Virus record (IMG/VR): IMGVR_UViG_3300049595_005065 | Reading direction: 5' to 3' (one strand) | Source of the DNA: a virus | Lineage: Duplodnaviria > Caudoviricetes | Length of the DNA stretch: 64,000 nucleotides | In this document: positions 2,256 to 61,624 of the stretch, piece after piece | Position numbering within the stretch: position 1 is the stretch's first letter | Layout of the letters: the number at the start of each line of letters is the position of its first letter | Notes under the pieces: model-generated | Seen by the model: the letters and a program-made list of their open reading frames with translations, nothing else | Told to the model about the DNA's origin: nothing | The model's database searches: none | Program-made: the position numbers and the translations under genes

Positions 2256-3357
2256 CGTACTAGACGATTTCCTGAAGGTGGCAGCGCCCGCGTCAAAGGA
2301 CAGCCACCGATTGATGCTTGCCGCCGCGCTGCTGGAGGTTCTCCGGCTAGCGGGCAGCGAGTCAAAGACCCCGGGTATCGCCCGGGCCAAAATGGTCACG
2401 GCGGCAGAGCAGCTGGCCGCTTATGACTTTTCGGGGCTCACGTTCTCGATTACCCGCGCCACGCGCAGCGACACCATCAAAGATATCTTTGACCAGGTCG
2501 GCACGCCCCCGGAACAGCGCGACCGCGTGATCCTTGAAGCCCTGCGCCAGTTCGTGAACGTGGTGCAGCTCGAGCCCGAGGTCTCCAGCCAGGAGCTGTT
2601 CAACCAGCTCGTGGCCGAAGCGGCCATAGGCTTCAACGCCCCGCCGCTCCCAGCGCCACCTCCCACGCCGCCGGTTCGCGTGGCAAAGAAAGCGCCGGAG
2701 CTGTCGCAGTCCAAGAACCTCTCCGGCGTGTTCCAGGCGGCCAAGTTCTCGCCCGAGGGTAGCCCCGCCGTGGAGCTGCTCAACTGGCAAAGCGAGTATC
2801 CGGACGCCAAGGGCCTGGGTCCGCAGCTTGCGGCGCTCGCGCTGGCTGAGACAGGCGGCGAGATGAAGATCCTCACGGAGACCGGCGAGTTCGTCTGGCT
2901 GCCCAAGGAAACGTTCCTGCTCGCCAAGGCGGCACCCGAGGAGTACGCCATGGTGCCTCCAGCGCTGTTGGCCAGCGCCCGCATTGCCGCGCCGTGGAAC
3001 TGGACCGCCGATGGTGACATGGAGGCGCGATATGACGCGCGCTTTGGCCGTTTTACGCAGCCTGTTCTGTTTGCCAGCTACGGCCCCGACTTTGTGGGCG
3101 CGCTGCAAGACGTCTTCGATCGACCTGGTAATTACCCGCCGGGGAGCGCTGTCGCAGTCACGCTCAACGTTGACGGAACTCCATATTCCGTTACGCTGGA
3201 CGCCCGTGTTTCCAAAACAGGTCCTTACGTGACGGCAAAGCTGCTGGACGCCAGCGAGAACATCGTGATGCGGCTTGACACGCCCCGCCAGTTCTCGCCG
3301 CGGGGCGTATATTTGTTTCCACTGCCGGAAACGGCTGTCGCGCTACTGGTGTTTTAA
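2230..3357 (+). CDS. Hypothetical protein
   Basis: GGAG RBS, ATG at 2230, stop coupled to next start. Confidence 0.7.
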   Translation: MTTDCVGSDVLDDFLKVAAPASKDSHRLMLAAALLEVLRLAGSESKTPGIARAKMVTAAEQLAAYDFSGLTFSITRATRSDTIKDIFDQVGTPPEQRDRVILEALRQFVNVVQLEPEVSSQELFNQLVAEAAIGFNAPPLPAPPPTPPVRVAKKAPELSQSKNLSGVFQAAKFSPEGSPAVELLNWQSEYPDAKGLGPQLAALALAETGGEMKILTETGEFVWLPKETFLLAKAAPEEYAMVPPALLASARIAAPWNWTADGDMEARYDARFGRFTQPVLFASYGPDFVGALQDVFDRPGNYPPGSAVAVTLNVDGTPYSVTLDARVSKTGPYVTAKLLDASENIVMRLDTPRQFSPRGVYLFPLPETAVALLVF

Positions 3358-5741: not shown

Positions 5742-5743
5742 AG

Positions 5744-5822
5744 CCGCACGTGTCGGCTCGGCACCCAAGTCGTGAGTGGGTCATAACCACGAGGTCAGTA
5801 GCGTTTCATTTGCTTCGTTCTA
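5744..5822 (+). pseudogene. Degenerate tRNA-Met(CAT)-like sequence
   Basis: D-like stem CGGC/GTCG; anticodon arm GTGG-GTCATAA-CCAC followed by GAGGTC; T arm and acceptor poorly paired. Confidence 0.3.
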
Positions 5823-5864
5823 AACGCGTACTGGAAGTCGTAACAAGGAAGGATCCTGTGGCGC

Positions 5865-5928
5865 GGGCCCCGGGCGCAATTCGGTTGCGCGGAGTATCTC
5901 CTCCAGGTTCAAATCCTGGCGGGGCTCA
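5865..5928 (+). ncRNA. tRNA-like cloverleaf with a truncated anticodon arm
   Basis: 8-bp acceptor GGGCCCCG/CGGGGCTC (one G-U); 1-nt linker; D arm GCGC-AATTCGGTT-GCGC; mini arm GGAG-TAT-CTCC; canonical T arm CCAGG-TTCAAAT-CCTGG; no encoded CCA. Confidence 0.65.
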
Positions 5929-5951
5929 TTACAGAACAGGCAGGCTAATCA

Positions 5952-6563: not shown

Positions 6564-7748
6564 GTGACTTCGCTGTTTGTGTTTACCGCCGACCTTCACC
6601 TGGAGGACGGCGCCTGGAGCACCAGGCCCAGCATTTACGGCGACGCGTATTACAGCTTCGCCCAGATCGTGGACTACTGCATCGAGAAGCGGCTGCCCCT
6701 GATCCTGGGCGGCGACGTGCTCGAGAAGAAGAGCAACTCCGCCCGGCCGATCGCCAAACTCTGCGAAGGCTTGTCCCGGATGCAGCAGGCTGGCGTGCCG
6801 GTCTACTACATCCAGGGCAATCACGAGTACGACCGCAACGCCCCCTGGCTGTCGGTCCATCCCTGGCCGCAGCACATCCACAGGCAGAGCGTGGAGATCC
6901 AGGGCCATCCGGTCTACGGCCTGGACTGGCTGCCCCGCGGCGAGATTCAGGAGGCCTTCAAGGCGGTGCCCGAGCGCACGCACATCCTGATCACGCACCA
7001 GGTCTGGGAGGACCTGATGAAGGGCCTGGGCCGCACCGAGTGCAGCATCGCCGACGTCCACAACGTCCGCACTGTGCTGGCTGGCGACTTCCACGTCACG
7101 ACGACGGTCGAGGGCATCAACGCCGACGGCCTTCGCACCGAGATGCTCTCGCCCGGCTCAATCTGCATGCAGGACTTGGGCGAGTGCCCGACCAAGTACT
7201 TCTTCGTGATCAACCGGAAGGAAGAAGGCGGCTTCGAGTTCGAAGCGCAAAAGCTGCGTACACGGCCGTTTTTGAACTACGCAGTCAAGGAGCAGGAGCT
7301 GCTGGACCGCCTCTGTGCCGGTGAGTTGGCGACGACCATCGCCGAGGCGCAGGCGCAATGCTCGAATGTCGAGCGCGTCCTGGGCATCGACAAGCCGATC
7401 GTCCGGATCAAGTTCGACAAGCGGCTTCCCGACGCGTTCCTGCGGCTGACCACGGCCGTGGGCGACTCGGCGCACCTGTTCTGCGAGGCTTTGGCCGACA
7501 AAAACGCGGTGCAGCAAAGCAAGAACAACAACCGCGACGGCGCCCGCAACGACGTGCTGGCGGCCCTCTCCGACCTGCTCGGCGCAGACTCGGAGGAGTA
7601 CAAACTCGCCGAGCGCCTGGTCCGGGCCGAAGATCCGGGCAAGGAACTCGAGGCGTTTTTCAACGCGTTTTTCACCGAGGAGGTTCCCTGTGCAATTGTT
7701 GAGACTGGAAGTTCGGAACTGGGTACACCATCGCCAGCGGGTGTGTGA
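6564..7748 (+). CDS. sbcD: SbcD/Mre11-like metallophosphoesterase nuclease
   Basis: Motifs ADLHL, GGDV, QGNHE, ITHQ and AGDFH; adjacent to SbcC. Confidence 0.9.
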   Translation: MTSLFVFTADLHLEDGAWSTRPSIYGDAYYSFAQIVDYCIEKRLPLILGGDVLEKKSNSARPIAKLCEGLSRMQQAGVPVYYIQGNHEYDRNAPWLSVHPWPQHIHRQSVEIQGHPVYGLDWLPRGEIQEAFKAVPERTHILITHQVWEDLMKGLGRTECSIADVHNVRTVLAGDFHVTTTVEGINADGLRTEMLSPGSICMQDLGECPTKYFFVINRKEEGGFEFEAQKLRTRPFLNYAVKEQELLDRLCAGELATTIAEAQAQCSNVERVLGIDKPIVRIKFDKRLPDAFLRLTTAVGDSAHLFCEALADKNAVQQSKNNNRDGARNDVLAALSDLLGADSEEYKLAERLVRAEDPGKELEAFFNAFFTEEVPCAIVETGSSELGTPSPAGV

Positions 7749-18699: not shown

Positions 18700-21600
18700 C
18701 GGCAGTAATGACGTTTCACCACCTGATGTCTCAGGCGTTCGACGACCCGGACAGCGCGGCGCTGGCCGAGGCGCTCTATCCGTTTCTCGACATGACGGGG
18801 CCAGGGATGCCGCAGCCCGGGCCAAACTTCATCGAGCACGCCAACCTGCTGGGCGACTCAATCGATCCGGCGCAGGTCAAAAAGAAGAAGCTCGAGCCGG
18901 GCGAGCACCTGCTGTATCTCTATCGCCGCGCGCTGTACGACGCGACCTTCTCGATGCCGATCCGCGTCAAGAGCGGGCAGAAGGTCTCGCAGTTCGTGCC
19001 GGGTCACATCTGGGGCAAGGCGGCCGAGAAGGCCTACGGCCCCAAGCCCGCCCGGGTCATGATCGTCTCGAAGATCCCCGGGCGGGACGAGATGGCCGAC
19101 GGCTGCGTGATGACCGGCCGGGTGGGGCAGCCGTTCATCGACGTGCTCGAGGATCTCAGCGTGCCACCCGAGGAATACCTCACCTGGTACACGACCTTTG
19201 CTTGCAAGTTCGGCTCGCCAACGCCCGACTCGAGCACCGTGCCCGCCGTCTGGCTTAAGGACTGCGCGCCGCTGCTGGCCCAGGAGCTGCGCCTGGTGCG
19301 CCCGGACTACATCCTGTGCCTGGGGCAAGAGGCGGCCAAGGCCGTGCTCAACACGCCAGGCAATGTCTCAAACCTCTCCGGGCGGGTGATGACCATCAAG
19401 GTCCCCGACCGCCTGGGCGAGCGCGAGATCAAGGTCATGACGGCCATGAACCCCGCGTTCATCCTCCGCAAGCCCGAGGCCTACGAGGACTTCCGCGGTC
19501 AGGTCCGGCGATTCGTGGACCTGATCCATGACCGGATGCAGGACACCGAGACGGTCGACCACGCGGACATCTACACCGAAGAAGCCCTGATCGAGATGGT
19601 CGACGAGATGATCGCCGACCCCGATCCCAACGCGAACATCATCGCCGTGGACTGCGAGTGGCACGGCGACTATCCGACGGAGGCTGGCGCTTATCTCAGG
19701 ACGATCCAGGTCAGCAACCGCGACAAGTGGGCGCGGACCATCGTGCTGCGCTACGACAACGGCGCGGAGGCGTTCCGACCCAATCTCGACGCAGCCCGCG
19801 TTCAACTGAACCGGCTGCTCAAGAGCACCCCAGACCGCAAGGTCCGGGTGGGCGGTCACTTCCTCCGCGCCGACTTGCCGTGGCTGCTCGACTTCGGCGT
19901 GGACTGCCGCGAGGAGTACGCCCCGGCGCCATCGCCCGACATCCGGACTGCGGGCGGCTGGGACACCAGCCTCCTCTACCACGCCTGCAACGAGACGGCG
20001 AAGTTCGGCCTGGACGACTGCTCGATGCGCTTCACGACGGCCCCGACCTACTGGGTCGAGCTCGACAAGTGGAAGAAGGCTTACCAGAAGCGCAAGAAGA
20101 TCAAGGCGAGCGAGATGGAGGGCTACGGCGTGATTCCGTGCTCGGTCCTCCACCCGTACGCCAGCTACGACGCCGACGTCACGCGGCGGATCATGATGAA
20201 GTTCTACGGCACCGACGGTACCGACGGGCTGATCGCCAAAGATATCTTTGGCAACGACTGCTGGCTGCCGTACTGGACGGCGCACCAGGCCAGCCTGGCG
20301 TTCCTCGAGATGGAGCAGACGGGCCTGGTGATCGACCGACCGCGCGCCGACGAGCTGACGACGCTCTTCATGAACACCCAGGACCGGTTGCTCGCGGAGA
20401 TTCGCGCCGACCTGAACTGGCCCACGTTCAACCCGAAGAGCCAGCCGCAGCTCGCCGTGGCCTTGTTCGGGCGGCAGTTCCTGAACCGCTACGCCAACAC
20501 GGTCACCGTGCCGGACGACGTGCGGCCGCTGGACCTGACGCCGGTGAAGACCACCGGCAAGCGCCCGACGCTCTGGAAGGAGCTGAACTACAAAACCCGA
20601 CGCGAGTCGGCCGTTCCCAGCACGGACAAGGAGAGCCTGGGCATTCTGGGCCATACGAACGCCACGGCGGCCAAGATCCGCGACTACAAGTTCATCTCGC
20701 AGGTCCTGGTCTCCGTGTTGCGCAAGCCCAACACCAACGAAGAAGGAGACTTCGAGACCAATGAGGACGGTCATTACACGTATGAAAAAGGCCTTATCGG
20801 AGCTATGCACTCCGACGGCAAGGTCCGTACGCACCTTTTTCAGACTAAGGAAACCGGACGGGCCAGCAGCTCCCGGCCTCCGCTACAGAATCTCAGTTCC
20901 CGGCGCGAGGACGACTACCGGCGGATCCTCGGCGAGTCCTACCGGCATCCCGTCCGCTCGATCCTTCGTGTACCCGAAGGCTGCGTTGGTATCGAGACGG
21001 ACCTCACGGGCGCGGAACTGGCGGTTCTCGCATGGCTCTCGCAGGATCAAAACTTTATTGAACACGTCCGCCGTAACCTTCTTCCCGAAGATCATCCGGA
21101 CCACTACGACATCCACTCGCGACAGGCCGTGAAGGCCTTCGCGCTCTCGGGCGTCGAGCCGACCAAGACCGGAATGAAGAACGCGGGGAAGAAGGGTTTG
21201 CGGGTGGCCGCCAAGAACGTGAACTTCGGCATTCCCTACGGCCGAGGTCCCGAGGCGATCGCCCGACAGTGCAAGGAGGAGGGCGTCGAGGTCACGGCCG
21301 AAGAGTGCCAGTTGATGATCGACGCCTACTTCGAGTCGTACCCCCGGACGAAGGACTTCCTGGCTGAATGCCGGGAGCGCAGTCAGATGCCCGGCTGGCT
21401 CGTGGGCCCCTACGGTCGTTATCGGCGGTTCATGCCCACGACGGACCGCGCCGTGATCGGGGAGCAGCAGCGCCAGGCGCAGAACTTTCCGATTCAAGGC
21501 GGCGTGGCGGATGCCGTGTCGCTGGCGCTCAACAACTTCTACCAGTACCGCCAGGCGCATCCCGAGATTCAGTACGACATTGCGCTGCAGATCCACGACG

Positions 21601-41971: not shown

Positions 41972-42286
41972 GTGCCGATCGTAACCAACGAGTTAGATAT
42001 CTTTGAGCTGCGGAACGACGTTCCGGCGGCCAATGGCCAAGACCAGCCGACGATTTTGCTTGAGTCGGGAACCTGGAACACCAAGACGGGCGACGTGACG
42101 GGAATCTGCGTTTCGGTGTTCGGCGACTTGGCGCCGATCATCTCGCCGACCGAGGCCCGCAAGGTGGCTAAATGGCTCGTCCGGGCGGCCGAAGAGCTGG
42201 AAGGCGCTAACGGCCGCAAGGCCCGCCCTGGCTCGAAGCCGTCGCACTACGAGCTCGACGACGACGGCGACGGCGCCGTTCGATAG
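41972..42286 (+). CDS. Hypothetical protein
   Basis: GTG start following the upstream stop. Confidence 0.6.
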   Translation: MPIVTNELDIFELRNDVPAANGQDQPTILLESGTWNTKTGDVTGICVSVFGDLAPIISPTEARKVAKWLVRAAEELEGANGRKARPGSKPSHYELDDDGDGAVR

Positions 42287-45839: not shown

Positions 45840-45904
45840 ATGGGCGAAACTCGTCGTTTCGTCGCGATGGCTGGGTTAGATATCTTTCCACGGAGGGGGA
45901 CATC

Positions 45905-47643: not shown

Positions 47644-47655
47644 CCTGGAGGAACC

Positions 47656-48168: not shown

Positions 48169-48409
48169 GGACTGGATAGATATCTTTGCGCCGCACGCGC
48201 GGCGCGAGGAGGGCGTGACTCTGAGCGTTTCGGAGGTCACGCGGCTGGTGTTCGATCTCGAGGCAGCGCGGGCTGCCGTTATGGAGGAGCCTGAAAGGCC
48301 ATGGGACCGTATCGCTGTTCCGTCCGGTTCTTCGTGTCGTACTTCAGCAAGGAGTATCAGCAGATCCTGCAGCTCGGAATGGACAACCGCCGCCACACAG
48401 CCGAGCTGA
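48155..48409 (+). CDS. Small hypothetical protein
   Basis: AGGAG RBS, ATG at 48155. Confidence 0.5.
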   Translation: MTGLEDWIDIFAPHARREEGVTLSVSEVTRLVFDLEAARAAVMEEPERPWDRIAVPSGSSCRTSARSISRSCSSEWTTAATQPS

Positions 48410-48893: not shown

Positions 48894-48899
48894 TGTTCA

Positions 48900-49245
<346 letters not shown>

Positions 49246-49248
49246 TTG

Positions 49249-49288
49249 CCAAGGCCCGCTTGCGATACGTTTCGCAGGCGGGCCTTGG
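49249..49288 (+). terminator. Hairpin/terminator downstream of tmRNA
   Basis: CCAAGGCCCGC..TGCGA / TCGCA..GCGGGCCTTGG. Confidence 0.7.
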
Positions 49289-49316
49289 TGTTTCTGTAAC
49301 CACAAAGGAGCACAGC

Positions 49317-50074: not shown

Positions 50075-50115
50075 TTTCGCCCGGCGGTATCTTTGAGTGG
50101 CGCGCGCTGCTCTTC

Positions 50116-51322: not shown

Positions 51323-51379
51323 CGCCCTTATTCTGGGGCGGATGGGTTCGGTGTTTCCCCCTTTTAACGAGGTGTTTCT

Positions 51380-51961: not shown

Positions 51962-51971
51962 GGAGGTTTGC

Positions 51972-52337: not shown

Positions 52338-52549
52338 CCGAGGAAGACTCCGCTGAGGTGCTCAAGGACGTCTTCGAGCGGCACCCGCCGCCCAATGATT
52401 ACGGGCCGTTTATGTTCGGCTGTTTTGTCGCGCTGCTCAACCTCGCGCCCGACGAGCAGGCCATCGAGGAGTTCGCCGACAAGTGCGGACTCACGGTGTT
52501 TGTGAAGGTCGTCAAGCTCGACGCGCCGGACAAGCCCAAAGCGGCGTGA
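52319..52549 (+). CDS. Small hypothetical protein
   Basis: Coupled ORF. Confidence 0.5.
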   Translation: MVAFSMTEEDSAEVLKDVFERHPPPNDYGPFMFGCFVALLNLAPDEQAIEEFADKCGLTVFVKVVKLDAPDKPKAA

Positions 52550-52564
52550 TCTGCGTAGAGAACG

Positions 52565-52619
52565 CCGCCTGCAGTCCGGGCTACGCGCCCGGGCTCAGGC
52601 GGTTTCTTTTTGCTATCAG
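52565..52619 (+). terminator. Intrinsic terminator followed by GCTATCAG
   Basis: CCGCCTG..CCGGGC/GCCCGG..CAGGCGG followed by TTTCTTTTT. Confidence 0.8.
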
Positions 52620-52663
52620 CGGTTACACTACAGGCTGGTTTCCTCACACACAGGAGTTTCATC

Positions 52664-52846
52664 ATGCAGGCAGAAGTCTACGTTCAGGGTCAGTTCTACA
52701 AGGTCATGGAGGCTGAGTACACGCACCAGATCCTCAACCAGGTCACCAACGACATCCAGAATGGTTTGGTGCCCCACTTCGATCCCGAGCTGCCTCACTC
52801 GATCGAGATCAGGAATATTCCGGCTCCTGCGCCCGCCGAAGGTTGA
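52664..52846 (+). CDS. Small hypothetical protein
   Basis: AGGAG RBS, ATG at 52664. Confidence 0.6.
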   Translation: MQAEVYVQGQFYKVMEAEYTHQILNQVTNDIQNGLVPHFDPELPHSIEIRNIPAPAPAEG

Positions 52847-52891
52847 GAGTCTATTGCGCATAATTTCCCAATATTTGGGAAGTCAGTTCAT

Positions 52892-52975
52892 AAGCCGTGT
52901 ATCCGTAGTTTGGCCAGTTTTGCGGTTTCTCTCGAGAAACACGCAAATTCAGGGTCAGTTACGGATACACGGTTT
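52892..52975. other. Long imperfect inverted repeat (about 84-nt hairpin/cruciform)
   Basis: CCGTGTATCCGTA (52895-52907) / TACGGATACACGG (52960-52972) enclosing TGGCC/GGTCA, TTTGCG/CGCAAA and GTTTCT-CTCG-AGAAAC. Confidence 0.85.
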
Positions 52976-53182
52976 TGTTTAGGCGCAAAACTAACTTCAG
53001 CTAAGTTCGCCGTAACTCGTTGGCGCGCAAGCATTTACGTCACGCACGTATGCCGCGCAGCACGTAAACCCTTTCTGCACAACGACTTGCGTCAAATCTC
53101 TCAAATCTAACTGCCCTGGTCAGCGCAGTCCGACTGCTCCTGGCAGCGCAGTACGCGCCCGGTTAGATATCAAACCTGGGCA

Positions 53183-53211
53183 GCTAAATCTGGGGCAAAA
53201 ACCAGGCATAT
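53183..53211 (+). promoter_or_regulatory. Promoter-like motif GCTAAA-N16-GGCATAT, copy 3
   Basis: Exact bipartite match, intergenic. Confidence 0.65.
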
Positions 53212-53255
53212 CTGATGAACAGATCGATAGCTGTCATCAACCCCCGGGAGGTTCT

Positions 53256-53396
53256 ATGTTTTCGATTCGCGCTCTTCTGTTCCTGCTGTCCATTGCGCTC
53301 GTGACCCGGCTCATCAGCTGGTCCGTTCGCGGTGGGCTGCTTCTCGTGAAGACCATCGCCTGCCTGCCCTTTCAGGTGGCGCGCTGCTTCATCTGA
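53256..53396 (+). CDS. 46-aa hydrophobic peptide (not in ORF track)
   Basis: GGGAGG RBS; MFSIRALLFLLSIALVTRLISW...CFI-TGA. Confidence 0.6.
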   Translation: MFSIRALLFLLSIALVTRLISWSVRGGLLLVKTIACLPFQVARCFI

Positions 53397-53494
53397 GCGG
53401 ACCTACGGTCGGCGGCCCTGCCTCCCAGCTGGGCCTCCATCCGTGTGTCTGTTTGTTTGGTTGGTTTCCATTCCTATGAAGGAGAGTTCTCACC

Positions 53495-53956
53495 ATGCGC
53501 AACTTCGCGCTTTTCGTGGTCGGTTTCGTGTCGGCGGTGTTCTGTGTCACGCTGGTGCCCGAGTCGGTCGTCCGGCCCCCAATCGTCGCGGCGGAGAACG
53601 CCCCTGAGATCGAGGGCATTCTCGCTGGGGCTGAGCGCTCCGGCGAGTTTTCGCGGATCGTCGTGCCCGCCGAGTACGACCTCCGCTTCCTGGCCGCCTG
53701 GGGCAGCGACGCCTCAGCGGTTGCCTCGTTCGCGCATTCTTTTCGCGAGCAGTCTGGCGCGGGGCTGACCCTGCGTCAGCGTGAGGTGGTACGGCACGAG
53801 ATCCTGCCGCGCTACAAGGCGATCGCGTATCGTCACTGGCAGTCCCTTGGGGCTGACAGGTTCATGCCCGCTGTTAAGGCGGACATCGCGCGGTTTGCTC
53901 CAGAGGTGGCGGGCATGTTGATCGCCGCCTCGGGTTCGGAGACGACTGATCTCTGA
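53495..53956 (+). CDS. Secreted or membrane hypothetical protein
   Basis: AAGGAG RBS; hydrophobic N-terminus. Confidence 0.65.
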   Translation: MRNFALFVVGFVSAVFCVTLVPESVVRPPIVAAENAPEIEGILAGAERSGEFSRIVVPAEYDLRFLAAWGSDASAVASFAHSFREQSGAGLTLRQREVVRHEILPRYKAIAYRHWQSLGADRFMPAVKADIARFAPEVAGMLIAASGSETTDL

Positions 53957-53962
53957 CCAGAG

Positions 53963-54005
53963 AAAGCGCGGACCCGGGGCGCAAGCTCCGGCTCTCCCGC
54001 TTTTT
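53963..54005 (+). terminator. Intrinsic terminator
   Basis: CCGGGGC-GCAA-GCTCCGG with outer AAAGCG/CGCTTT and a T run. Confidence 0.8.
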
Positions 54006-54023
54006 CTTAGCTATCAGCGCCCA

Positions 54024-54052
54024 GCTAAATAACAACCCAAAACCCGGCATAT
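54024..54052 (+). promoter_or_regulatory. Promoter-like motif GCTAAA-N16-GGCATAT, copy 4
   Basis: Exact bipartite match, intergenic. Confidence 0.65.
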
Positions 54053-54144
54053 CTAGTGAGCAAACCATAGGTGTCAGTGTGTACTGGCCGTGGTGCGCTC
54101 CTGGGCGCCAGCAGTTTCTGGCTCTTGCCCGAAGGGAGGCAACG

Positions 54145-54441
54145 ATGACGACGATGCAGTCGACGCAGGTGGCCCGCGCTGAGGCCGCTCTCGAATCGCT
54201 TTTCGCGTTCGAGACGATGTGTGCGGTCGCGCTCAGCAAGCACGGAAAGTGCCGTACGGCCGCAGAGATGTTCCGGCAGCTGGCCAGCCATGCTGAGCTG
54301 GTCGCCGAGAACTCGGTGGTCCTGTCGCGGGTGGCTGAAGCCCGTGGCGAGGAGGCTGCTGCGGTGGCTGAGTGGAAGGTGGTGTGTTGCGCCACGACGG
54401 TCGCCGAGGTTGCCCGTAGGCGCCTGGCGCAGTGTGCGTAA
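54145..54441 (+). CDS. Small Ala-rich hypothetical protein
   Basis: GGGAGG RBS, ATG at 54145. Confidence 0.6.
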   Translation: MTTMQSTQVARAEAALESLFAFETMCAVALSKHGKCRTAAEMFRQLASHAELVAENSVVLSRVAEARGEEAAAVAEWKVVCCATTVAEVARRRLAQCA

Positions 54442-54490
54442 GCGACGACCCCCAGGGCAATCACGCCCTGGGGGCTCTCCCGCTTTTTCT
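54440..54490 (+). terminator. Intrinsic terminator
   Basis: CCCCCAGGGC-AATCAC-GCCCTGGGGG followed by a T run. Confidence 0.8.
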
Positions 54491-54578
54491 TAGCTATCAG
54501 CGCGCCATAGATATCTTTGCCCGTTGCTGCAGCGCCCCGTATTTGCGAAGATAACGCAGTTCCCTGAAGGAGCGCGCC

Positions 54579-56066
54579 ATGCCGTTTAAGTCTGAAAAGC
54601 AGCGGCGTTTTCTGTGGGCCGAGCATCCTGAGATCGCCAAGCGCTGGGCGCACAAGTATCCCGAGTCCAACAAGGGCCTGCCGATGTACGCCGACAAGAA
54701 AGACGACACTGATAAGAAAGCCGCGCTTGATGTTCTGGCCCGCGCCGTGTCGAGCTTTAACCAGACGCGCGCATTTCCCAATAATGGTGAAATTAACGGC
54801 GCAAACGCCAAAAAAGCCAACTCCGGGATGATCTACATCGACGTTCCGCAAGGGGACAAGCCAACTTACGCAGGGGAAGATCGCGAGAAGGGTAAGCAGA
54901 CTGAGGGCGAAAAGCAGGTTGCGCACTGTGACGGCGAAAAGGCCGATCAGGACGCTGTAAGCGCTGTTTTTGGCAAGCTGGCCGTTGTTTTGGCGCCGAA
55001 GTTGCGCGAAATGTGGGAGCAGGAACAAGCGCTGACCGAGGGTCGAGAACCCCTGTTTGTGCCGGAAAACCTCGGTGTTCGGCGTTATTCCATTCCGAGT
55101 CCCGTCGTTCCTCCACCGATGGGCATGGCGCCCCAGGCTCCGGCCCAGGCTGGCATGCAGCCCATGGCGCAGCCTGCAAATACTCCCGTGGGCGGCGGCT
55201 CTCATCCCCAGCACAATCCAATTCAGGCTTTCGGACCGCTCGGTGCCAAGGGCCAGATCAACGGCAACGCGGCGTTTGGCCAGAAGAACTCTCCGGACAG
55301 CCTGAAGACCTCCAGCCTAAAGATTCTCACGAGCATTGATTTCTCGGGGCTGCCGGACCCCGATGACTTGGACCTCGACGAAGACGAGCGCACCAAGAGC
55401 GCCGCCAAGCCGTGCTCCTGCGGCTGCGGCGATACGGTGCCGACCTGCAAGTGCTCGAGCGCGCAGGAGTTCGGCGAGAAGCTGGCTCAGGAACTCGAGC
55501 TGAGCCTGCCTGCCCAGGTGGCTGTAATGGCTGCACTGGGCGGCGGCGCAGGTATTCGTCACGGCGGCCTGGCTGGGCTGACCGGCGGCGGGATCTACGG
55601 CGCCATTAATCCAGGCGAGTACGTTGACGAGAAGGGCCAGAAGCAAAAGCGCACCCGGCTCCAGGGCGCAGCGCAGCACGGCTTCGAGAACGCAGGCAAG
55701 CTCGGCCTGATTGGCGGCGGCCTGGGTGCAGCCACGGCGGGTAGCCTGCCGCTCGTGGCTGAGCTGCTGGGCGACAAGAGCGCAGGCCTGGGAACAGCTT
55801 TGGCCCGCGGCACAGCCCGCGGCGTCGAGAACTACAACGAAGACGTGCGCAATGAGAACTCCGAGCAGCGCGACAACCCAGACTATGCGCCCCAGCAAGA
55901 AGTCAGCGACAGCTCGGGCGCGCTGCTGGCGCTGCTCCTGGGCGGCGGTGGTCTGGCCCTGGCGCACGGCCCCAGCCTGATGGGCAAGATGACCGGCGGC
56001 TCCAGGGGTCGACGGACCAAGCGGGCCACCGCGAAAGATATCTTTGACATCGTTCAGGGTGCGTGA
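54579..56066 (+). CDS. Glycine-zipper-containing protein, probable virion/internal protein
   Basis: N-terminal MPFKSEKQRRFLWAEHPEIAKRW; GxxxG hydrophobic segments. Confidence 0.65.
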   Translation: MPFKSEKQRRFLWAEHPEIAKRWAHKYPESNKGLPMYADKKDDTDKKAALDVLARAVSSFNQTRAFPNNGEINGANAKKANSGMIYIDVPQGDKPTYAGEDREKGKQTEGEKQVAHCDGEKADQDAVSAVFGKLAVVLAPKLREMWEQEQALTEGREPLFVPENLGVRRYSIPSPVVPPPMGMAPQAPAQAGMQPMAQPANTPVGGGSHPQHNPIQAFGPLGAKGQINGNAAFGQKNSPDSLKTSSLKILTSIDFSGLPDPDDLDLDEDERTKSAAKPCSCGCGDTVPTCKCSSAQEFGEKLAQELELSLPAQVAVMAALGGGAGIRHGGLAGLTGGGIYGAINPGEYVDEKGQKQKRTRLQGAAQHGFENAGKLGLIGGGLGAATAGSLPLVAELLGDKSAGLGTALARGTARGVENYNEDVRNENSEQRDNPDYAPQQEVSDSSGALLALLLGGGGLALAHGPSLMGKMTGGSRGRRTKRATAKDIFDIVQGA

Positions 56067-58366
56067 GCTCTATGCCGCTTCCATTGGGACCGATGCTTTC
56101 TTCCGTTGGCCGGGCGCTGACTGGCCCGACGGCACGCAATGTCGCTCGCTTCGGCGCAGGCGGCACGGCGGGCTATCTGGCCAACGACGCCTATCTCAAC
56201 CAGGTCAACCCTGAAGTCTCCGACCTGGGCCGGATGCGCTCTAATCTTTTCTCTGGCGTGCTAGGCGGCGCACTGACCAGCCGCGGCGCCATGCCTGCCT
56301 TGGCCCGGGCTGCAAAGGCGCGCGACCCGAAGCTGCTCCTGGGCGGCCTGGGCGTAGCTGCCCGTTATGGCGCGATTCTGCCCGACATGGAGCACAGCCC
56401 GATTGGTTCTGGCGAAGCGCACAACAGAATTGGCCTGGGCTTTGGCAAGCTGCTTGATCCAGGCCACTCGCCGCTGCCCAAGGTCGTGGCGCACATCAAA
56501 GACCAGAAAAAGCTCGAAGAAACGCTGAACACGTGGTCGCGCCCCGTCGAGCACGGCGCCGAAATTGCGACCGACAAGGCGTACGACAAGATCAAAGCTG
56601 ATCTTGAGAAGAACAAGGGTAGCGCCGCGAAGTGGCTGCAAACAGCTGGGTTGCCTGCGACTTACGGCAGCCTGATCACGGCGCTGGGCGGCACGCCGGG
56701 TGAGAAGCCTACGCTCTCCGACGTCGGCATGGCGGCTGTGCCCCATGTTGCAGGCGGCGCTGGCGGAGCTTACCTGGGCCATCTTCTGGGCGGCGGCGTG
56801 GGGAACTTCCTGTTCAAGGACAACCCAAAAGCTGAGTACGAAGAACGCCGTCGCCAGGAACAGCGGCGTTGGTGGCTGCAGTTCCTGGGTTCTAATCTTG
56901 GCGCCGTAGGCGGTGTCTATGGCGCCATGAACGCCGCGCCGCATCTCAACAAGCTGATTGGTTCAGCCATGCAGACCAAGCAGTCGGAGGTGAAGGAAGC
57001 CGTAGGGCCGATTCCGCCGCAAACTTCTGGCCTGCTCATGCGTTCTTTGAGCAACATGCTGCGCACTGGTACGCGCGCAGGTTTGCAACGCGGCGGCCAA
57101 ATGGCGCTGGGTCTAGGCAAAGACATGGCGCTGGCTGGCGGCATGACAGCCGGACAGTACGCCGCGAACATCGTGCCGCCCGGAGGCTACGACGCCCAGG
57201 GCAAGCCGCTGGGCCCGAACACCGACCTGAGCTACATGGGGTCGCTCTACGGCACAAATCTGCTGGGCGCAAGGCTCGCCCGCGGCATGCTGAGCGGCCA
57301 GGCGTTCGCTGGTAAGGCTAACCCCCTGACGCGCGGCCTGACGCTCGGCGCGATGGCCACGGCTGCGCCGAGCGTGGTGAACCTGGGCACGAGCGTTCCG
57401 CCACTGTTTGGGCAGGTGCTCAACCCGGAGAAAATTAACAAGTACACCGCTGCGCTGGATCAGGACACCGGCCGCTTTGGCCAGGATCCCGCGGGAGCTG
57501 CCCAGGCTGCCGCCCGTGGCGCCCAGAAGGCGCTCGCAAACAAGCCAGTCGTTGCTGATGCGGCCAATCTCACCCAGGACGTCGTCGAAGAAGCAGGCGT
57601 GCCGGGCATGAGCGCCAAGGGCAACCAGAGTATCAAGGACATGCTCGGTTCGACGGGCCTGTCCATGCTGGCTCAGGGCGCGGGCATGGCGACCGGCGGC
57701 GTGGCTGGCCTGACGGCGGGCGACTGGCTCGTCGACAAACTGTTAACTACAGCCGTGAACAAGAAGTGGCTCAAGAAGCGCAAGGGGCTGCACCAGTTCC
57801 TGCGTGACCTGGGCGCCGTTGCTGGCGCGGGCCTGGGAGCTTACGGCGGCCTCAAAGCGCTGAACTACGGCGTCCCAGCTGCCGCGAACTACTACAACAA
57901 ACACCTGGCAACGCAGCCCAAGACGGCGAGCGTCACTCCAGACTGGGAAAAGATATCTTTCGAGCTGGGCGGCCTGGACGTCCGGCTGCCCGACGACGTG
58001 AACGCCGCCCGCATGACCGCTATTGCCGCGCTGGTCTCCGGCGCGCTTGGTGCTGGTCGTGGCGCCTACGACCCTGGCTACGACGAGAAGACGAACCGAC
58101 GCGGACACATTATCTCCAAGACCCGCCGCAGTCGCCTGCGGGGCGCTGGCCTGGGCGGCCTGATTGGCCTGACGACGGGCGTGGGCGGCAGCTACACCTC
58201 GCAGTTCGCCAACCAGTACCGGCCCGAGATCGACGGCTACATCCAGAGCTGGCTGCCGAAATCTGTAACCGAGCCGCAGCCACAGGTGGCAGGCGAGGAA
58301 ATGCTGCCGCACGAGAACGTAGACGTGGTGCAACCGCTGCTTGATACAATCAGTCATACCGCCTAG
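56063..58366 (+). CDS. Large Gly/Ala-rich multi-glycine-zipper protein
   Basis: 767 aa; repeated GGAGGAYLG/GAGLGAYGG-type helices. Confidence 0.7.
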   Translation: MSSMPLPLGPMLSSVGRALTGPTARNVARFGAGGTAGYLANDAYLNQVNPEVSDLGRMRSNLFSGVLGGALTSRGAMPALARAAKARDPKLLLGGLGVAARYGAILPDMEHSPIGSGEAHNRIGLGFGKLLDPGHSPLPKVVAHIKDQKKLEETLNTWSRPVEHGAEIATDKAYDKIKADLEKNKGSAAKWLQTAGLPATYGSLITALGGTPGEKPTLSDVGMAAVPHVAGGAGGAYLGHLLGGGVGNFLFKDNPKAEYEERRRQEQRRWWLQFLGSNLGAVGGVYGAMNAAPHLNKLIGSAMQTKQSEVKEAVGPIPPQTSGLLMRSLSNMLRTGTRAGLQRGGQMALGLGKDMALAGGMTAGQYAANIVPPGGYDAQGKPLGPNTDLSYMGSLYGTNLLGARLARGMLSGQAFAGKANPLTRGLTLGAMATAAPSVVNLGTSVPPLFGQVLNPEKINKYTAALDQDTGRFGQDPAGAAQAAARGAQKALANKPVVADAANLTQDVVEEAGVPGMSAKGNQSIKDMLGSTGLSMLAQGAGMATGGVAGLTAGDWLVDKLLTTAVNKKWLKKRKGLHQFLRDLGAVAGAGLGAYGGLKALNYGVPAAANYYNKHLATQPKTASVTPDWEKISFELGGLDVRLPDDVNAARMTAIAALVSGALGAGRGAYDPGYDEKTNRRGHIISKTRRSRLRGAGLGGLIGLTTGVGGSYTSQFANQYRPEIDGYIQSWLPKSVTEPQPQVAGEEMLPHENVDVVQPLLDTISHTA

Positions 58367-58396
58367 TTGGGTGCTTTTCATACACGGAGTCTTGTT

Positions 58397-58882
58397 ATGT
58401 CTGCTTATCAGAAGATTGCCAGCGCCCGCGAGTTCGGCGAAAAATTTGGTGGCTATATCGAATATGCGGGCAATGATCCAAAAGAACTCGCCTGGCAGAA
58501 AAAATACGAAAAGCATGTCCGCAAGTGGGAAAAAGAAGACATGAAGAAAAAGCCAGCCCGCGAGTTCGGCGAGAAGCTGGCCATGGACCCGCGCCTCATG
58601 GGCGGCCTGGGCGGCGCAGCGGTGATGGGTCTGGGAGGCGCCGCGCTGGGCGCGATGAACCCCGGCGAGGAAGAGACAGTTGACGACAACGGCCGGGTCG
58701 TGAAGCGCCAGAAGAGCCGACTGAGCAGCGCGCTGGCGGGCGGCCTGGGTGGCGCACTGGCAGGTGGTGCGGGCGGCGCAGCTTTGGGTCACTTTCGGGG
58801 CGACAACGTGCGGGATTTTGGCAACATGCTGCGGGCGCGACTGGGCGGTGAAACGCAAGCTCCGCCGCCGAAAGTTATCTGA
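58397..58882 (+). CDS. Glycine-zipper protein, paralogous module to 54579 and 56063
   Basis: AREFGEK twice; GAMNPG...SRLSSALAGGLGG. Confidence 0.65.
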   Translation: MSAYQKIASAREFGEKFGGYIEYAGNDPKELAWQKKYEKHVRKWEKEDMKKKPAREFGEKLAMDPRLMGGLGGAAVMGLGGAALGAMNPGEEETVDDNGRVVKRQKSRLSSALAGGLGGALAGGAGGAALGHFRGDNVRDFGNMLRARLGGETQAPPPKVI

Positions 58883-58913
58883 TAGCTAAAAAAACTTGCG
58901 CTATATTGAGCGC

Positions 58914-59654
58914 ATGGACACAGCCCAACAAGCAGAAGACCCCGAGCTGTCGGCCTACATCCAGGTCTACGGCAACAAGCGCGCCGTGCTCGAGAGCCTG
59001 AAGAGCTTTCGGGCGCACTACCCGCGGGCAAAGATATCTTTGATCTCCGACGGCGGAGAAAGCTTCGCTGAGTTTGCGCAGCCTTTCCAGCTCTATTACG
59101 AGCACTCGCCGGTGAACACGCTGCCGAGCGCCCGGCTGGCCAACCCTGACTGCGCCCGGGAGTATCTCCGCAGGATCTACCAGCACTGTCAGCGCGCCAG
59201 GAGCCTCTGGGTGCTGATCCTGGAAGAAGACGTGCTCACGTACCGTCGGGTGCGCAAGTATCCGAAAGTTCACAGCGCTGGGCCCCGGAACAACCCGTTC
59301 TCGCGTGAGCTCAACGAGTACCTGAACAACAAGCGGCTCACGTCCGGCGTGGAGTACTTCTACAACCTCAGCGGCGGGGGAGTTTTTCACCGCGAGACTT
59401 TCCTGCTGTGCTACGAGCAAAACCACTTCGACCTGAACTACGCCTGGCTGCTCGACGAGCGCCTGGCGGCCACGGACGCGCTGCTCTCGGCGTTCTTTCT
59501 GGCCAACAACCAAGACAACGTCGCCTGGGAAGAAGTCTCCGAGAAGCACATTGCCAGGCAGGATTTAGTGATCGACCGGGACGCCGCGTTCGACCACAAC
59601 GACAAGCGCTGGTACGGCCAGCCGTTTGACGCGAGCCTGCTGCCGCGCGCTTAA
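58914..59654 (+). CDS. GT-A-like glycosyltransferase
   Basis: ISLISDGG; LILEEDV; GGGVF. Confidence 0.55.
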   Translation: MDTAQQAEDPELSAYIQVYGNKRAVLESLKSFRAHYPRAKISLISDGGESFAEFAQPFQLYYEHSPVNTLPSARLANPDCAREYLRRIYQHCQRARSLWVLILEEDVLTYRRVRKYPKVHSAGPRNNPFSRELNEYLNNKRLTSGVEYFYNLSGGGVFHRETFLLCYEQNHFDLNYAWLLDERLAATDALLSAFFLANNQDNVAWEEVSEKHIARQDLVIDRDAAFDHNDKRWYGQPFDASLLPRA

Positions 59655-59722
59655 AACCAGGCGCTTTCTGGTAAACTGGCCCGGAATAGATATCTATTGC
59701 CAGAGCAGGCAAGGACGCCCGC

Positions 59723-61624
59723 ATGCCCGCAGCCGCTGTTCCACAAGCCGACCTGCACGCGCGCTTTCAGCCCGACTACACGCCCGAGCAGCTCGAGGGC
59801 CTGGGCGTGTACGACGCGCTGTACCGTGGCGCTGCGCCCCGTCTAGCCAGCCTGGGCGAGTGGAAGCCCGAGTGGATCAGCGAGCATGACCCCAAGGGCT
59901 GGGCCCAGTGGTACAAGCGCTACGCCGCCGGACGCAGGATCCCGGGCGAAGACGAGCGCCAGATCAAGCGCTGGCTGAGCTTCAAGTCGCGCCACGGCGG
60001 GCCATTCGCAAAGAACCCCACAGCGCGCCGGGGCTGGGCGCTGCGCAACTGGGCTGTGGATCCCGCGAAGCTTGTGCCCGAGCAGGCGCAGCAGATCAAC
60101 GACATGCTCGAGGAGCGTAAGCGCAAGGCGATGCAGAAGTTCGTCCAGGAGCGCGTGCAGACTGAGAAAGCTGCTGAGCTGGTTCCTGAAGTTCAGCTCC
60201 AGGAGCACCAGCAGCGCGTTGCCGATAGAGTCTCCACAGGCGACCCCCGCTTGCTCGTCTATCACGGCCTGGGCTCTGGGAAGTCTCTCTCGGCGCTGGC
60301 TGCGGCCGAGGCTGCCAGGAAAGTCCACGGCGATAACTACGGCGTGGTAGTCCCGGCCAGTTTGCGCGGCAACTTCCAGAAGGAAGTCAAGAAGTTCACC
60401 CGGAACTCCAGCCCCGAGATCCTGAGCTACACGGGCCTGGCGCTGGGCAAGCGCTTTCAGAATCCAGCCGACACGGTGGTCATGGACGAGGCGCAGCGCT
60501 TGCGTAATCCGACCTCGGGGGCGACCCAGGGCGCCAAGCAGCTCGCCCGCCAGGCCAAGAGACTCGTGCTTCTCTCGGGCACGCCGATCACGAACTCGCC
60601 GACTGACCTGGCGAGTTTGATATCTTTGCTCGACAACAAGAACATGTCGCCGCAGGAGTTCGAGCAGAAGTTCATTGGGTACAAGAAAAAGTTCCCTGGC
60701 CTGCTTAAGTATCTTCAGGGCGCGCAGTCAGGCGAGGAACCATACGTCAAGAACGAGGGCGAGCTGCGCAAGATGCTCGCCGGAAAAGTTGACTACCAGC
60801 CGAGCAAGACTCCCCAGGGAGTGACAGTCAACGAAGAGACCGTGCAGGTGCCGCTCTCGGGCGAGCAGGAGCGCATCCAGCGCGCCATTCGGACGCGCAT
60901 TCCGCCAGGGTTTCTCTGGAAGCTCGACCAGGAGTTCCCGCTCTCGCGCGACGAGCTGAACAAGCTGAATAGCTTCTTGACTGGCCTGCGGCAGGTGAGT
61001 CTCTCGACGCAGCCATTTCGGGCCGACAAGAATCCGCTCAAGGCGTTCGACCAGTCGAGCAAGCTGCGCGAGGCCATGAAGCGCCTGCGCGAGAACCTGG
61101 ATGCTGACCCGCGGCGCAAGGCGATCGTCTACTCAAACTTCATCGACTCTGGCATTCAGCCGTACGCCCGGGCGCTCGAGCGGGACAAGATTCCTTACGG
61201 GATCTTCCACGGCGGGATCCCTGTGGCCCAGCGCCAGCAAGCACTCAAAGACTACAACGAGGGCAAGCTCAGAGCTTTGCTGCTGGGCCCAGCCGCCGCC
61301 GAGGGAATCTCGACCAAGGGCACCAGTCTCATTCAGCTCCTGGACCCGTACTGGCACGAATCGCGCACGCAGCAGGCCCGCGGCAGAGGTTTGCGCTTCG
61401 ACTCGCACGAGGGCCTGCCCGAGGAGCTCAAGAACGTCGCGGTGCAAAGATATCTTTCGACGAGCAAAGAGCCTGGCTTGTTTAGCAAGTACGTGCTGGG
61501 CCGCCGACGGGAGCGCACCGGCGACGAGGTTTTGCAGCACCTGGCCGACAAGAAAGAGCAGCTCAACGAGGCCTTCCGCAAAATCCTGCGTGAAGTGGGG
61601 ACGCCGCGCGAGACAGTACAATAG
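59723..61624 (+). CDS. SNF2-like SF2 helicase (NCLDV D6/D11-like motifs) with an extra N-terminal domain
   Basis: VYHGLGSGKS; DEAQ; SGTPITN; QARGRGLRFDSH..LP..KNVAVQRY; N-terminal DPKGWAQWYKRY..GRR..EDERQIKRW. Confidence 0.85.
   Translation: MPAAAVPQADLHARFQPDYTPEQLEGLGVYDALYRGAAPRLASLGEWKPEWISEHDPKGWAQWYKRYAAGRRIPGEDERQIKRWLSFKSRHGGPFAKNPTARRGWALRNWAVDPAKLVPEQAQQINDMLEERKRKAMQKFVQERVQTEKAAELVPEVQLQEHQQRVADRVSTGDPRLLVYHGLGSGKSLSALAAAEAARKVHGDNYGVVVPASLRGNFQKEVKKFTRNSSPEILSYTGLALGKRFQNPADTVVMDEAQRLRNPTSGATQGAKQLARQAKRLVLLSGTPITNSPTDLASLISLLDNKNMSPQEFEQKFIGYKKKFPGLLKYLQGAQSGEEPYVKNEGELRKMLAGKVDYQPSKTPQGVTVNEETVQVPLSGEQERIQRAIRTRIPPGFLWKLDQEFPLSRDELNKLNSFLTGLRQVSLSTQPFRADKNPLKAFDQSSKLREAMKRLRENLDADPRRKAIVYSNFIDSGIQPYARALERDKIPYGIFHGGIPVAQRQQALKDYNEGKLRALLLGPAAAEGISTKGTSLIQLLDPYWHESRTQQARGRGLRFDSHEGLPEELKNVAVQRYLSTSKEPGLFSKYVLGRRRERTGDEVLQHLADKKEQLNEAFRKILREVGTPRETVQ

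Follow-up and report, generated by a model that had tools for sequence, protein, structure and literature searches.

An AT-rich palindrome kept by selection at evenly spread sites in the GC-rich genome of an uncultured jumbo phage

The IMG/VR record IMGVR_UViG_3300049595_005065 is a stretch of 64,000 nucleotides (referred to here as the window) from an uncultured tailed phage of lake water, a jumbo phage with a genome of ~200 kb and ~230 genes. The window has a GC content of 59-66% along its whole length, and into this DNA is written an AT-rich palindrome with the consensus word AWAGATATCTWT, which occurs within genes as well as between them at a density of ~1 per 2.5 kb (25 in 64 kb). Selection acts on this DNA word rather than on the peptides that it encodes. 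The palindromes may constitute a genome-wide lattice at which a symmetric dimer binds and so marks or organizes the whole phage chromosome, a reading that we hold with about even confidence.

Among isolated phages, a megablast search with 20 kb gave no nucleotide match, and the best DNA polymerase identity is 24-25%. IMG/VR holds 29 relatives of the window phage, and the phage itself has been detected in lake-water runs from 2016 to 2024. Its sister phage, G001 (203,910 bp, circular map), shows 87% identity in the polymerase and 76% nucleotide identity over an alignment of 45 kb. The complete relatives compared with G001 were G003, G004, G005, G006, and G007, the more distant ones having ~68% polymerase identity. 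The 73-123-bp "terminal repeats" of the maps are assembly overlaps, and the maps were therefore treated as circular. All 74 gene calls of the window lie on the + strand, and 220 of the 225 genes of G001 lie on one strand.

Abundance and spacing of the palindrome

The search pattern WWWGATATCWWW occurs exactly 25 times in the window (Table 1), as an earlier note on this DNA had counted by eye and at the coordinates that it gave, against a mean of 0.00 and a maximum of 0 in 100 dinucleotide-preserving shuffles. Two extended palindromes singled out in that note, a 16-mer at 2477 and an 18-mer at 20235, are both perfect. A strict form of the motif (AGATATCT) was distinguished from a loose form (WGATATCW). 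The bare hexamer GATATC is present 32 times (4.6 expected), and 7 of these copies lack the A/T flanks, which agrees with the earlier count. These 7, compared with the 4.6 expected for all GATATC, are neither avoided nor enriched. The signal resides in the 12-mer and not in the bare hexamer. Copies with one mismatch are missing altogether from the window (0 vs. 2.7 in the shuffles). Once the copy at 53163, which belongs to a promoter element (see below), is set aside, 24 lattice sites remain. G001 contains 49 sites.

The sites are spaced more evenly than random placement would leave them. In G001, where there is 1 site per 4.2 kb, the coefficient of variation of the gaps is 0.585, compared with 0.97 for random placement (P=1e-4), and the largest gap is 10.9 kb, for which random placement gives a median of 17.8 kb; in the window the coefficient is 0.594 (P=0.005). 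Nearly every 5-kb bin of G001 has 1-2 sites, across structural, replication, and small-gene regions, and neither GC-skew polarity nor clustering of sites was found in this genome. The even genome-wide spread fits an organizational role better than gene-by-gene regulation.

By our own gene calls and those of the metagenome, genes contain 15-16 of the sites and the other 9-10 are located between genes or at gene junctions, a recount that replaces the earlier division into 17 intragenic, 2 junction, and 6 intergenic copies. Non-coding DNA is favored 3-4 fold (10 of 25 sites vs. 12% of bases). Inside genes, the first 150 nt are favored, with 5 of the 25 sites lying within 150 nt of a gene start. 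This preference for non-coding DNA and gene 5' regions is as expected if sites go where they cost least.

Two-fold symmetry of the site

Base preferences were tabulated in columns pooled from 74 sites (window and G001). The consensus reads A(89%) W A(88%) GATATC T(95%) W T(91%), set within G/C-rich flanks. These preferences are mirror-symmetric out to ±7, and the left columns mirror the complement of the right columns out to ±16, with a marginal departure only at ±5 (p=0.048) that coincides with the imposed coding form AAA/TWT. The effective site is 14 bp, since two bases are excluded just outside the 12-mer: only 1 of the 74 sites has T at -7, and only 2 have A at +7. Intergenic copies favor ATAGATATCTAT. 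Coding copies take the form AAAGATATCTWT, because ATAG would terminate translation in one of the frames and ATA has a share of only 2% among its synonymous codons; their reading is K-D-I-F/Y, x-K-I-S-x, or x-R-Y-L-x. The two junction copies at 12886 and 40757 contain the stop codon of the preceding gene, and the one at 12886 shares bases with the following ATG as well. Such complete symmetry points to an oligomer, itself symmetric, on double-stranded DNA and argues against a single-stranded RNA signal or a directional polymerase signal. The proposal of a dimer-type site is thus consistent with base preferences such as a dimer on double-stranded DNA would be expected to impose.

Selection on the DNA word

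A codon-preserving shuffle, which had been suggested as a check, does not reproduce the 25 copies. When synonymous codons are exchanged in the window, an average of 8.4 sites remains; 8 of these do not touch the shuffled codons at all, and the expectation for the 17 codon-touching sites is accordingly ~0.4. In G001, 49 sites are observed compared with 15.6 after shuffling, of which 14 are untouched. The motif is realized at 15 of the 18 places that the peptide sequence permits. It is written with codons that are indeed uncommon, as had been supposed from their AT-richness: the share within the respective amino acid is 19% for AAA, 20% for GAT, 19% for TAT, 6% for TCT, and 2% for both ATA and AGA. 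The joint codon probability of the motif is 1.0% for KDIF and 0.5% for KDIY. The peptides themselves are also in excess (KDI[FY], 5 vs. 0.14 expected; KIS, 7 vs. 1.8), which indicates that the DNA word drives the protein sequence and not the reverse.

This is illustrated by the DNA polymerase (18696-21833), a family A enzyme in which an N-terminal uracil-DNA glycosylase domain (PF03167) precedes the exonuclease and polymerase domains. In the two closest relatives, L001 and L002, a loop of this polymerase reads KDIF/KDIY and carries the motif, and in 26 more distant polymerases the same loop has unrelated residues (RSNT, KDQH, SDAN, and others) and no site. A variable loop of the DNA polymerase has been overwritten to KDIF/KDIY in the lattice clade only. 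Other protein overwrites relative to the outgroups are SKLSI to AKISI, AKMAK to AKISK, and ETQRY to EKISF. The codon shuffle, the 15 of 18 realized places, the codon probabilities, and the polymerase loop together support the view of the earlier note that it is the DNA 12-mer that selection targets.

Conservation and gain of sites

Eighteen sites of the window can be aligned with G001, and 12 of them are sites there as well. Within these 12-mers, 142 of 144 bases are identical, with 30-nt flanks that are 77% identical, and both of the changed bases are A/T swaps at a degenerate position; among random aligned hexamers of the window and G001, 23% are identical throughout. In this close relative, sites are thus kept while their flanks diverge, which is the conservation that had been named as a further check. 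The remaining 6 of the 18 are absent in G001, and the outgroups polarize them as gains in the window lineage. Each of the six gains comprises 3-5 clustered substitutions, some of them non-synonymous. At 60616 the steps can be followed, from SLLSM (CTTGCTGTC) in the outgroups, through SLISM (CCTGATCTCGAT) in G001, to SLISL (TTTGATATCTTT) in the window. Contigs from four lake runs that cover 44000-62000 at low depth contain two base differences in 18 kb, too few for a test of selection, and neither of them is in a site.

The majority of the sites shared with G001 are absent from the 68% relatives. The strict word WWAGATATCTWW occurs 41 times in G001 and 0-4 times in five complete relatives, with 3 strict sites in G003. 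With the exception of G006, the relatives of ~68% polymerase identity show an excess of the looser WWGATATCWW, of which they contain 16-29 copies in genomes or contigs of 144-205 kb; the positions ±4 are a mixture of A and T. The view that sister phages carry a symmetrically altered motif was only partly reproduced, in that the change is not a clean switch, and part of the TTAGATAT excess in the relatives is a directional element upstream of promoters. L210 is a further lattice-bearing contig (4 sites in 12.4 kb). A scan of IMG/VR with CAAAGATATCTTTG for other lineages with the lattice gave, among the matches listed, only single chance copies in unrelated contigs. By these sequence comparisons, the system is old but weak in the family, and it has been sharpened and expanded, and is still growing, in this narrow clade, as the 25 sites in 64 kb of the window show when set beside the 1 per 4.2 kb of G001.

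Table 1. Copies of the palindrome and promoter-like elements in the window, with the state of each site in related phages where recorded.
Sequence	Position	Strand	Location	Relatives and remarks
AAAGATATCTTT	2479..2490		gene 2203/2314-3357, frame 0, KDIF	16-bp palindrome with flanks; kept in G001, flanks diverged; G007 orthologue KAIV, no site
AAAGATATCTAT	8214..8225		SbcC/Rad50-like gene 7690-9846, frame 2, AKISI	kept in G001; outgroups SKLSI/LKLNV, no site
ATTGATATCTAT	12886..12897		gene junction: TGA stop of 12477-12890, overlaps ATG at 12896	identical site in G001
AAAGATATCTAT	15482..15493		near 3' end of 244-aa ORF 14887-15621, 124 nt before DnaB-like gene	kept in G001
TTTGATATCTAA	18310..18321		last 22 nt of DnaG-like gene 17309-18331	gain, window phage only: G001 GTTGATCTCTCA, outgroups no site
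AAAGATATCTTT	20238..20249		middle of DNA polymerase gene 18696-21833, KDIF	18-bp palindrome with flanks; L001/L002 KDIF/KDIY with motif; 26 distant polymerases without
AAAGATATCTAT	25965..25976		gene 25395-26561, KDIY	kept in G001; outgroups TDIY ACTGATATCTAT, an older partial site
AAAGATATCTAT	30794..30805		gene 30653-31333, KDIY	kept in G001
AAAGATATCTTT	33307..33318		gene 33254-33706, frame 2, EKISF	kept in G001; outgroups ETQRY/SPGHY
AAAGATATCTAA	35896..35907		gene 35567/35672-36529, frame 2, AKISK	kept in G001; outgroups AKMAK/SKMEK
TTTGATATCTAT	38767..38778		gene 38674-39714, FDIY	gain in window phage: G001 TGCGACATCTAT (CDIY), outgroups CSLY/CTLY
ATAGATATCTAT	40757..40768		gene junction: TAG stop of 40440-40760, 22 nt before start at 40791	kept in G001
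TTAGATATCTTT	41993..42004		21 nt into gene 41972-42286, LDIF	gain in window phage: G001 AGCGACATTTTT
TTAGATATCTTT	45876..45887		intergenic, downstream of terminator-like hairpin, 17 nt before start at 45905	apparent G001 counterpart 14 nt before start (synteny from gene order, not alignment)
ATAGATATCTTT	48176..48187		intergenic, 8 nt past stop at 48168	G001 TTTGATATTCTT
ATAGATATCTAA	50120..50131		between cREC receiver gene and AAA ATPase gene	
ATAGATATCTAA	51309..51320		intergenic	extended context same as 50120
TTAGATATCAAA	53163..53174	+	promoter upstream element, not lattice site; precedes CTAAAT-N17-GGCATATC	only site with A after GATATC
ATAGATATCTTT	54507..54518		intergenic, 6 nt after TTAGCTATCAG element	absent in G001
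AAAGATATCTTT	56034..56045		last 33 nt of gene 54579-56066, KDIF	
AAAGATATCTTT	57949..57960		gene 56063/56093-58366, frame 2, EKISF	
AAAGATATCTTT	59030..59041		gene 58896/58914-59654, frame 2, AKISL	
ATAGATATCTAT	59686..59697		intergenic, 25 nt before SNF2 helicase start	kept in G001
TTTGATATCTTT	60616..60627		SNF2 helicase gene 59723-61624, frame 2, SLISL	stepwise gain
AAAGATATCTTT	61446..61457		helicase gene, frame 1, QRYLS	oldest site; AAAGATATCTWW also in G001, G003, G004, G005
CTAAAT-N16/17-GGCATATY	33703-33731, 45197-45225, 53184-53212, 54025-54053	+	bipartite promoter-like element	seven more in G001
TTAGCTATCAG box	35550-35558, 52610-52618, 54008-54016, 54491-54499	+	directly after terminator-like hairpin and T-run	
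TTAGCTATCAG box	58880	-	directly after terminator-like hairpin and T-run	

Promoter-like elements

Two other classes of recurrent intergenic elements are present, both of them directional, on the gene strand, and never inside genes (Table 1). The TTAGCTATCAG box is often located just upstream of the CTAAAT element. In the relative G007 the same box reads TTAGATATCAR, and the TTAGATATCAAA copy of the window at 53163 stands in exactly that position, for which reason it is regarded as an upstream promoter element and not as a lattice site. In the strong-lattice clade the TTAGCTATCAG box is without the GATATC core (A to C), and this loss of the core may represent avoidance of cross-recognition. 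Among the proteins of G001 are an RNA polymerase (Rpb1_5 match) and one that is sigma-like (Sigma70_r3 match), and RNA polymerase and sigma-like proteins are found in the virion of the distant isolate Arash (PMC10585845). The bipartite CTAAAT-N16/17-GGCATATY is likely a class of sigma-type promoters in this phage family. A holoenzyme of the sigma type is suited by these bipartite elements but not by the palindromes.

Gene content of the window

The window encodes DnaB-like, DnaG-like, RecA-like, and SbcCD-like proteins, helicases, and a collagen-like fiber. A cREC_REC receiver-like protein (49772-50074; PF20274, E=3e-20) adjoins an AAA ATPase (50181-51290) with a faint likeness to sigma-54 activators, and lattice sites are located in both flanking intergenic gaps. 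At 48900-49245 (+) lies a phage tmRNA gene with the tag peptide GTFNSAPALAA (ARAGORN); the depth of lake-metagenome contigs in this region is 14-205, presumably since cellular tmRNAs match too. A tRNA-Ala (TGC) gene at 5851-5928 (+) is contained in the 210-nt intergenic region 5742-5951. The collagen-repeat fiber protein is encoded at 61671-63806, and two genes further downstream there is a protein with an Mtd_N domain, the N-terminus of the major tropism determinant, which is a hint of a diversity-generating retroelement target.

What may read the lattice

The preferred reading takes AWAGATATCTWT to be the recognition site of a two-fold symmetric (dimeric or tetrameric) protein that would read double-stranded DNA; its binding, its encoding by the phage, and its role are all inferred. 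Selection keeps the lattice evenly spread and is still adding sites, and new sites land at least cost, in places such as the junctions and ends of genes, variable loops of proteins, and synonymous positions. At 62% GC the word has an expectation of 0.38 per Mb, which would leave a GC-rich host chromosome nearly free of it. Being nearly absent from such a host and present every 2-4 kb in the phage, the word could serve as a dense, evenly spaced self-tag that sets phage DNA apart from GC-rich host DNA and covers every part of the phage chromosome. Within this reading, compaction, positioning, or organization of the phage chromosome, similar to matS/SlmA/Noc arrays, is tentatively the leading role. 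Stoperator-like roadblocks that brake transcription along the almost one-directional genome, and a self-mark that stops or deflects a processive nuclease or other DNA-tracking machine, are both possible, at an equal and lower rank. The likeness to parS/Noc sites drawn in the earlier note stands with respect to symmetry; it does not extend to ParB, for which the N-terminal domain is missing from three complete relatives, or to clustering of the sites.

Several observations weigh against a stable symmetric binder. An all-or-none spectrum of sites is less typical of regulators than it is of nucleases and modification enzymes. Between 9 and 10 sites lie 14-125 nt upstream of start codons, and GATATCT resembles the -10-like GGCATATC of the promoter-like elements, which leaves some probability to a role in transcription. 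The complete relative G006 is without enrichment (4 WWGATATCWW copies), which implies that the lattice is dispensable in the phage family. Pfam and PHROG scans of 211 G001 proteins detected no recognized sequence-specific DNA-binding family, and six-frame searches of G001, G004, and G007 gave no match to HTH_3, ParB_N (PF02195; at E<=1), or RHH_1. Nine proteins, one of them a glycosyltransferase, match the motif in phyletic distribution, occurring in G003, G004, G005, and G007 but not in G006; the eight of them that were checked are acidic, none but the glycosyltransferase has an informative family match, and the profile yielded no candidate for the binder.

One further protein was rejected as the reader. 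An XRE/CI-like helix-turn-helix (HTH) protein encoded at 1080-2255 (ending in ...AEWLLCGTGP) is fused to a Rossmann-like domain and is 53% identical to its G001 orthologue. Its HTH_3 match falls below the cut-off, its recognition helix differs in G001 though the sites are identical, and it is present in all six relatives, including the lattice-free G006. The top family lists of the general G001 scans include no protein of MatP or TetR type, and the G001 matches to the PHROG categories "DNA binding protein" and "transcriptional regulator" are MazG-like and CsrA. A weak methylase-like match of one of the profile proteins rests on a single PPY motif. In addition, two adjacent paralogues in G001 (reverse complement, 112446-113598) share ...RPxDIxAxxExxGxxxxxxQxSVxLRxFNK..., one of which has a lysine/alanine-rich, histone H1-like tail; the pair may be non-specific DNA-coating proteins.

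Alternative explanations

A more far-reaching proposal, which we consider unlikely, is that the lattice is a viral self-identity code, i.e., a host-absent palindrome at bounded spacing along the entire chromosome, through which a phage protein of no recognized DNA-binding family would coat, tether, or shield only phage DNA. Such a code could, for example, bring to a stop a processive nuclease engaged in clearing host DNA, or serve for loading a machine that protects or compacts the whole genome; selection for it would be strong enough to overwrite enzyme sequences and to go on adding sites. Also unlikely is that the sites are the target of an enzyme instead of a stable binder, either a PD-(D/E)XK nuclease or nickase (restriction- or homing-like), whose regular nicks or breaks would seed recombination-dependent replication of the 200-kb genome, or a base modifier that marks self. 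Symmetric recognition and the all-or-none spectrum (25 exact copies, none with one mismatch) suit oligomeric nucleases, and the core of the motif is the EcoRV hexamer. The lattice-bearing G001 and L210 both encode a free-standing PDDEXK_5 protein (152 aa; L039:10709-11167 (-) in G001, and L210:6001-6435) related to the tetrameric homing endonuclease I-Ssp6803I (2OST), in which the aligned D...QIK motif is kept, and in L210 one lattice site lies 160 nt upstream of the gene and another 50 nt downstream. For break-induced replication the phage has genes of the RecA-like and SbcCD-like kinds together with several for helicases, and a DUF1016/YhcG-like protein (N-terminal domain match only) is encoded in the same module. 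However, the PDDEXK_5 family is distributed sporadically, as is typical of a mobile homing endonuclease gene: it has a member in G003, with its 3 strict sites, and none in G006 or in the looser-enriched G004, G005, and G007, and the established carriers are G001, L210, and G003, the window's own genome not being among them. This leaves the nuclease a speculative enzyme candidate only. Self-cutting at 50-70 sites would be costly, and type II enzymes recognize sequences far shorter than 12-14 bp. The G001 proteome scans also contain no DNA methyltransferase family (two Methyltransf_24 matches are of the O-methyltransferase type), which counts against a base modifier and against the modification site that had been considered originally.

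Alternatively, the palindrome could be a promoter, a -10-like melting element at which the phage RNA polymerase or sigma would restart transcription every few kb; this has a slighter chance than the enzyme. The phage family does have its own RNA polymerase and sigma-like protein, the motif is an AT-rich island in 62% GC DNA whose GATATCT resembles the GGCATATC -10-like box, and ~50-70 sites per genome matches the expected number of promoters. The 3-4 fold enrichment in non-coding DNA, with many sites 14-125 nt upstream of starts, would also be explained. On the other hand, mirror symmetry is useless to a polymerase that reads in one direction, and it would fire antisense on a one-strand genome. 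The 15-16 intragenic sites include some in mid-gene, 1.5 kb from any start and bought with amino-acid changes; sites occur in all modules alike and not in one temporal class, and separate promoter-like elements exist that are bipartite, directional, and strictly intergenic. Less probable again is that the phage uses the sites to recruit or titrate a protein of its host, be it a nucleoid-associated protein, a regulator, or a repair factor, with different hosts accounting for the differences among relatives. This would agree with the lack of a phage-encoded binder in the family searches of relatives, and with an enrichment that varies among otherwise collinear relatives and is absent in G006, but at 0.38 expected sites per Mb such a protein would be nearly without sites in its own chromosome, and we know of no host factor with this motif. 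Least probable is that the sites arose neutrally, through biased mismatch repair or gene conversion, or that they act at the level of RNA. A neutral conversion process was once proposed for the HIP1 palindrome of cyanobacteria, and conversion predicts that one-mismatch neighbors should be missing, as they are here (0 vs. 2.7 in shuffles). It does not predict even spacing, and the sites arise by 3-5 clustered substitutions, some non-synonymous, from poor pre-sites. As for RNA, every site is transcribed, since the genes lie on one strand, but mirror symmetry to ±7 is needless for single-stranded RNA, and a 12-nt AU-rich self-complement would probably be too weak to fold.

Relation to known systems

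The sites matS, SBS, NBS, and parS, read by MatP, SlmA, Noc, and ParB, respectively, are palindromes of 12-16 bp that are recognized by dimers, occur in coding and non-coding DNA, and serve chromosome organization. The distribution of the lattice, as dispersed palindromes in coding and non-coding DNA, would fit an array of the matS or SBS type, and the lattice resembles ParB-parS and Noc-NBS in being a palindrome, with symmetry to ±7. In contrast, matS, SlmA, Noc, and parS arrays are regionally confined or excluded and tolerate mismatches, whereas the lattice is even throughout the genome and has no one-mismatch copies; there is no ParB_N in G001, G004, or G007, no origin clustering, and no excluded region. 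The stoperators of Cluster A mycobacteriophages, bound by the L5 repressor gp71, are asymmetric 13-mers oriented with transcription and recognized by a monomeric HTH repressor of a temperate phage. They number two to three dozen copies, some inside genes, and block transcription elongation genome-wide. Unlike stoperators, the sites described here are symmetric, HTH_3 is lacking in G001, G004, and G007, and nothing suggests lysogeny. The type II enzyme EcoRV reads bare GATATC, so that in a phage the hexamer would be avoided or methylated whatever its flanks; here, GATATC without A/T flanks is neither avoided nor enriched. Chi-like sequences are short asymmetric words with a strand bias that are read in single-stranded form by RecBCD or AddAB. 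Like Chi, the palindrome is over-represented genome-wide, but as a 12-14-bp palindrome it carries no strand information.

Two unexplained repeat systems offer closer parallels, the first of them the nearest. Cluster O mycobacteriophages, which infect an actinobacterial host, carry a 17-bp dyad repeat, TGTTCGG-N3-CCGAACA, in 34 copies per 70-kb genome (Cresawn et al., 2015; PMC4351075). These repeats are found at intergenic, 5'-proximal, and internal positions, are conserved in place, and have no orientation; both their binder and their function are unknown (PMC4351075). The lattice is likewise a near-invariant inverted repeat spread genome-wide (25 in 64 kb; 49 in G001) over intergenic, 5'-proximal, and internal positions, with a GC/AT contrast to its flanks. 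It differs in being a continuous 12-14-mer without a spacer, as opposed to 7+3+7, and the phages are not homologous. Even spacing, protein overwriting, and lineage-specific gain are seen here and have not been reported for Cluster O (PMC4351075). The HIP1 palindrome (GCGATCGC) of cyanobacterial chromosomes is over-represented many-fold and kept by selection both inside open reading frames (ORFs) and between them, not by roles of peptide, RNA, or expression, and its non-random spacing suggests a role in chromosome structure (Elhai, 2015, PMC4390886; Xu, Lawrence and Durand, 2018, PMC5861425). The lattice shares with HIP1 the over-representation of a short palindrome kept by selection within and between ORFs, and a spacing that is not random. 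However, HIP1 is a GC-rich 8-mer in thousands of copies, it is cellular, and orphan methyltransferases recognize its core, whereas the lattice consists of a viral AT-rich 12-14-mer in a GC-rich genome, in tens of copies and with no DNA methyltransferase in the G001 scans. By comparison, matS, SlmA, and Noc arrays and stoperators are functional analogies only. New relative to these precedents are the even spacing, the protein overwriting, the readable history of gain, and the fact that the carrier is a jumbo phage that encodes an RNA polymerase of its own.

Significance

The lattice is a clear case of a second code laid over viral protein-coding sequence, from which not even the DNA polymerase is exempt. 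Its history can be read, since sites that are ancient, shared, or newly gained coexist in the same genome, and the motif is a sensitive marker of this phage clade in lake metagenomes. Cluster O repeats and HIP1 have gone unexplained for years; here, the small size of the system (50-70 sites, ~230 genes) and its sharp motif make a screen for the binder tractable without a cultured host. If the self-identity code were true, it would be a new kind of chromosome-level viral signal with a new protein family behind it. Whether it concerns organization, global braking of transcription, or self-marking, a new principle in the handling of phage chromosomes would probably come to light once the reader protein is found, together with a new DNA-binding family.

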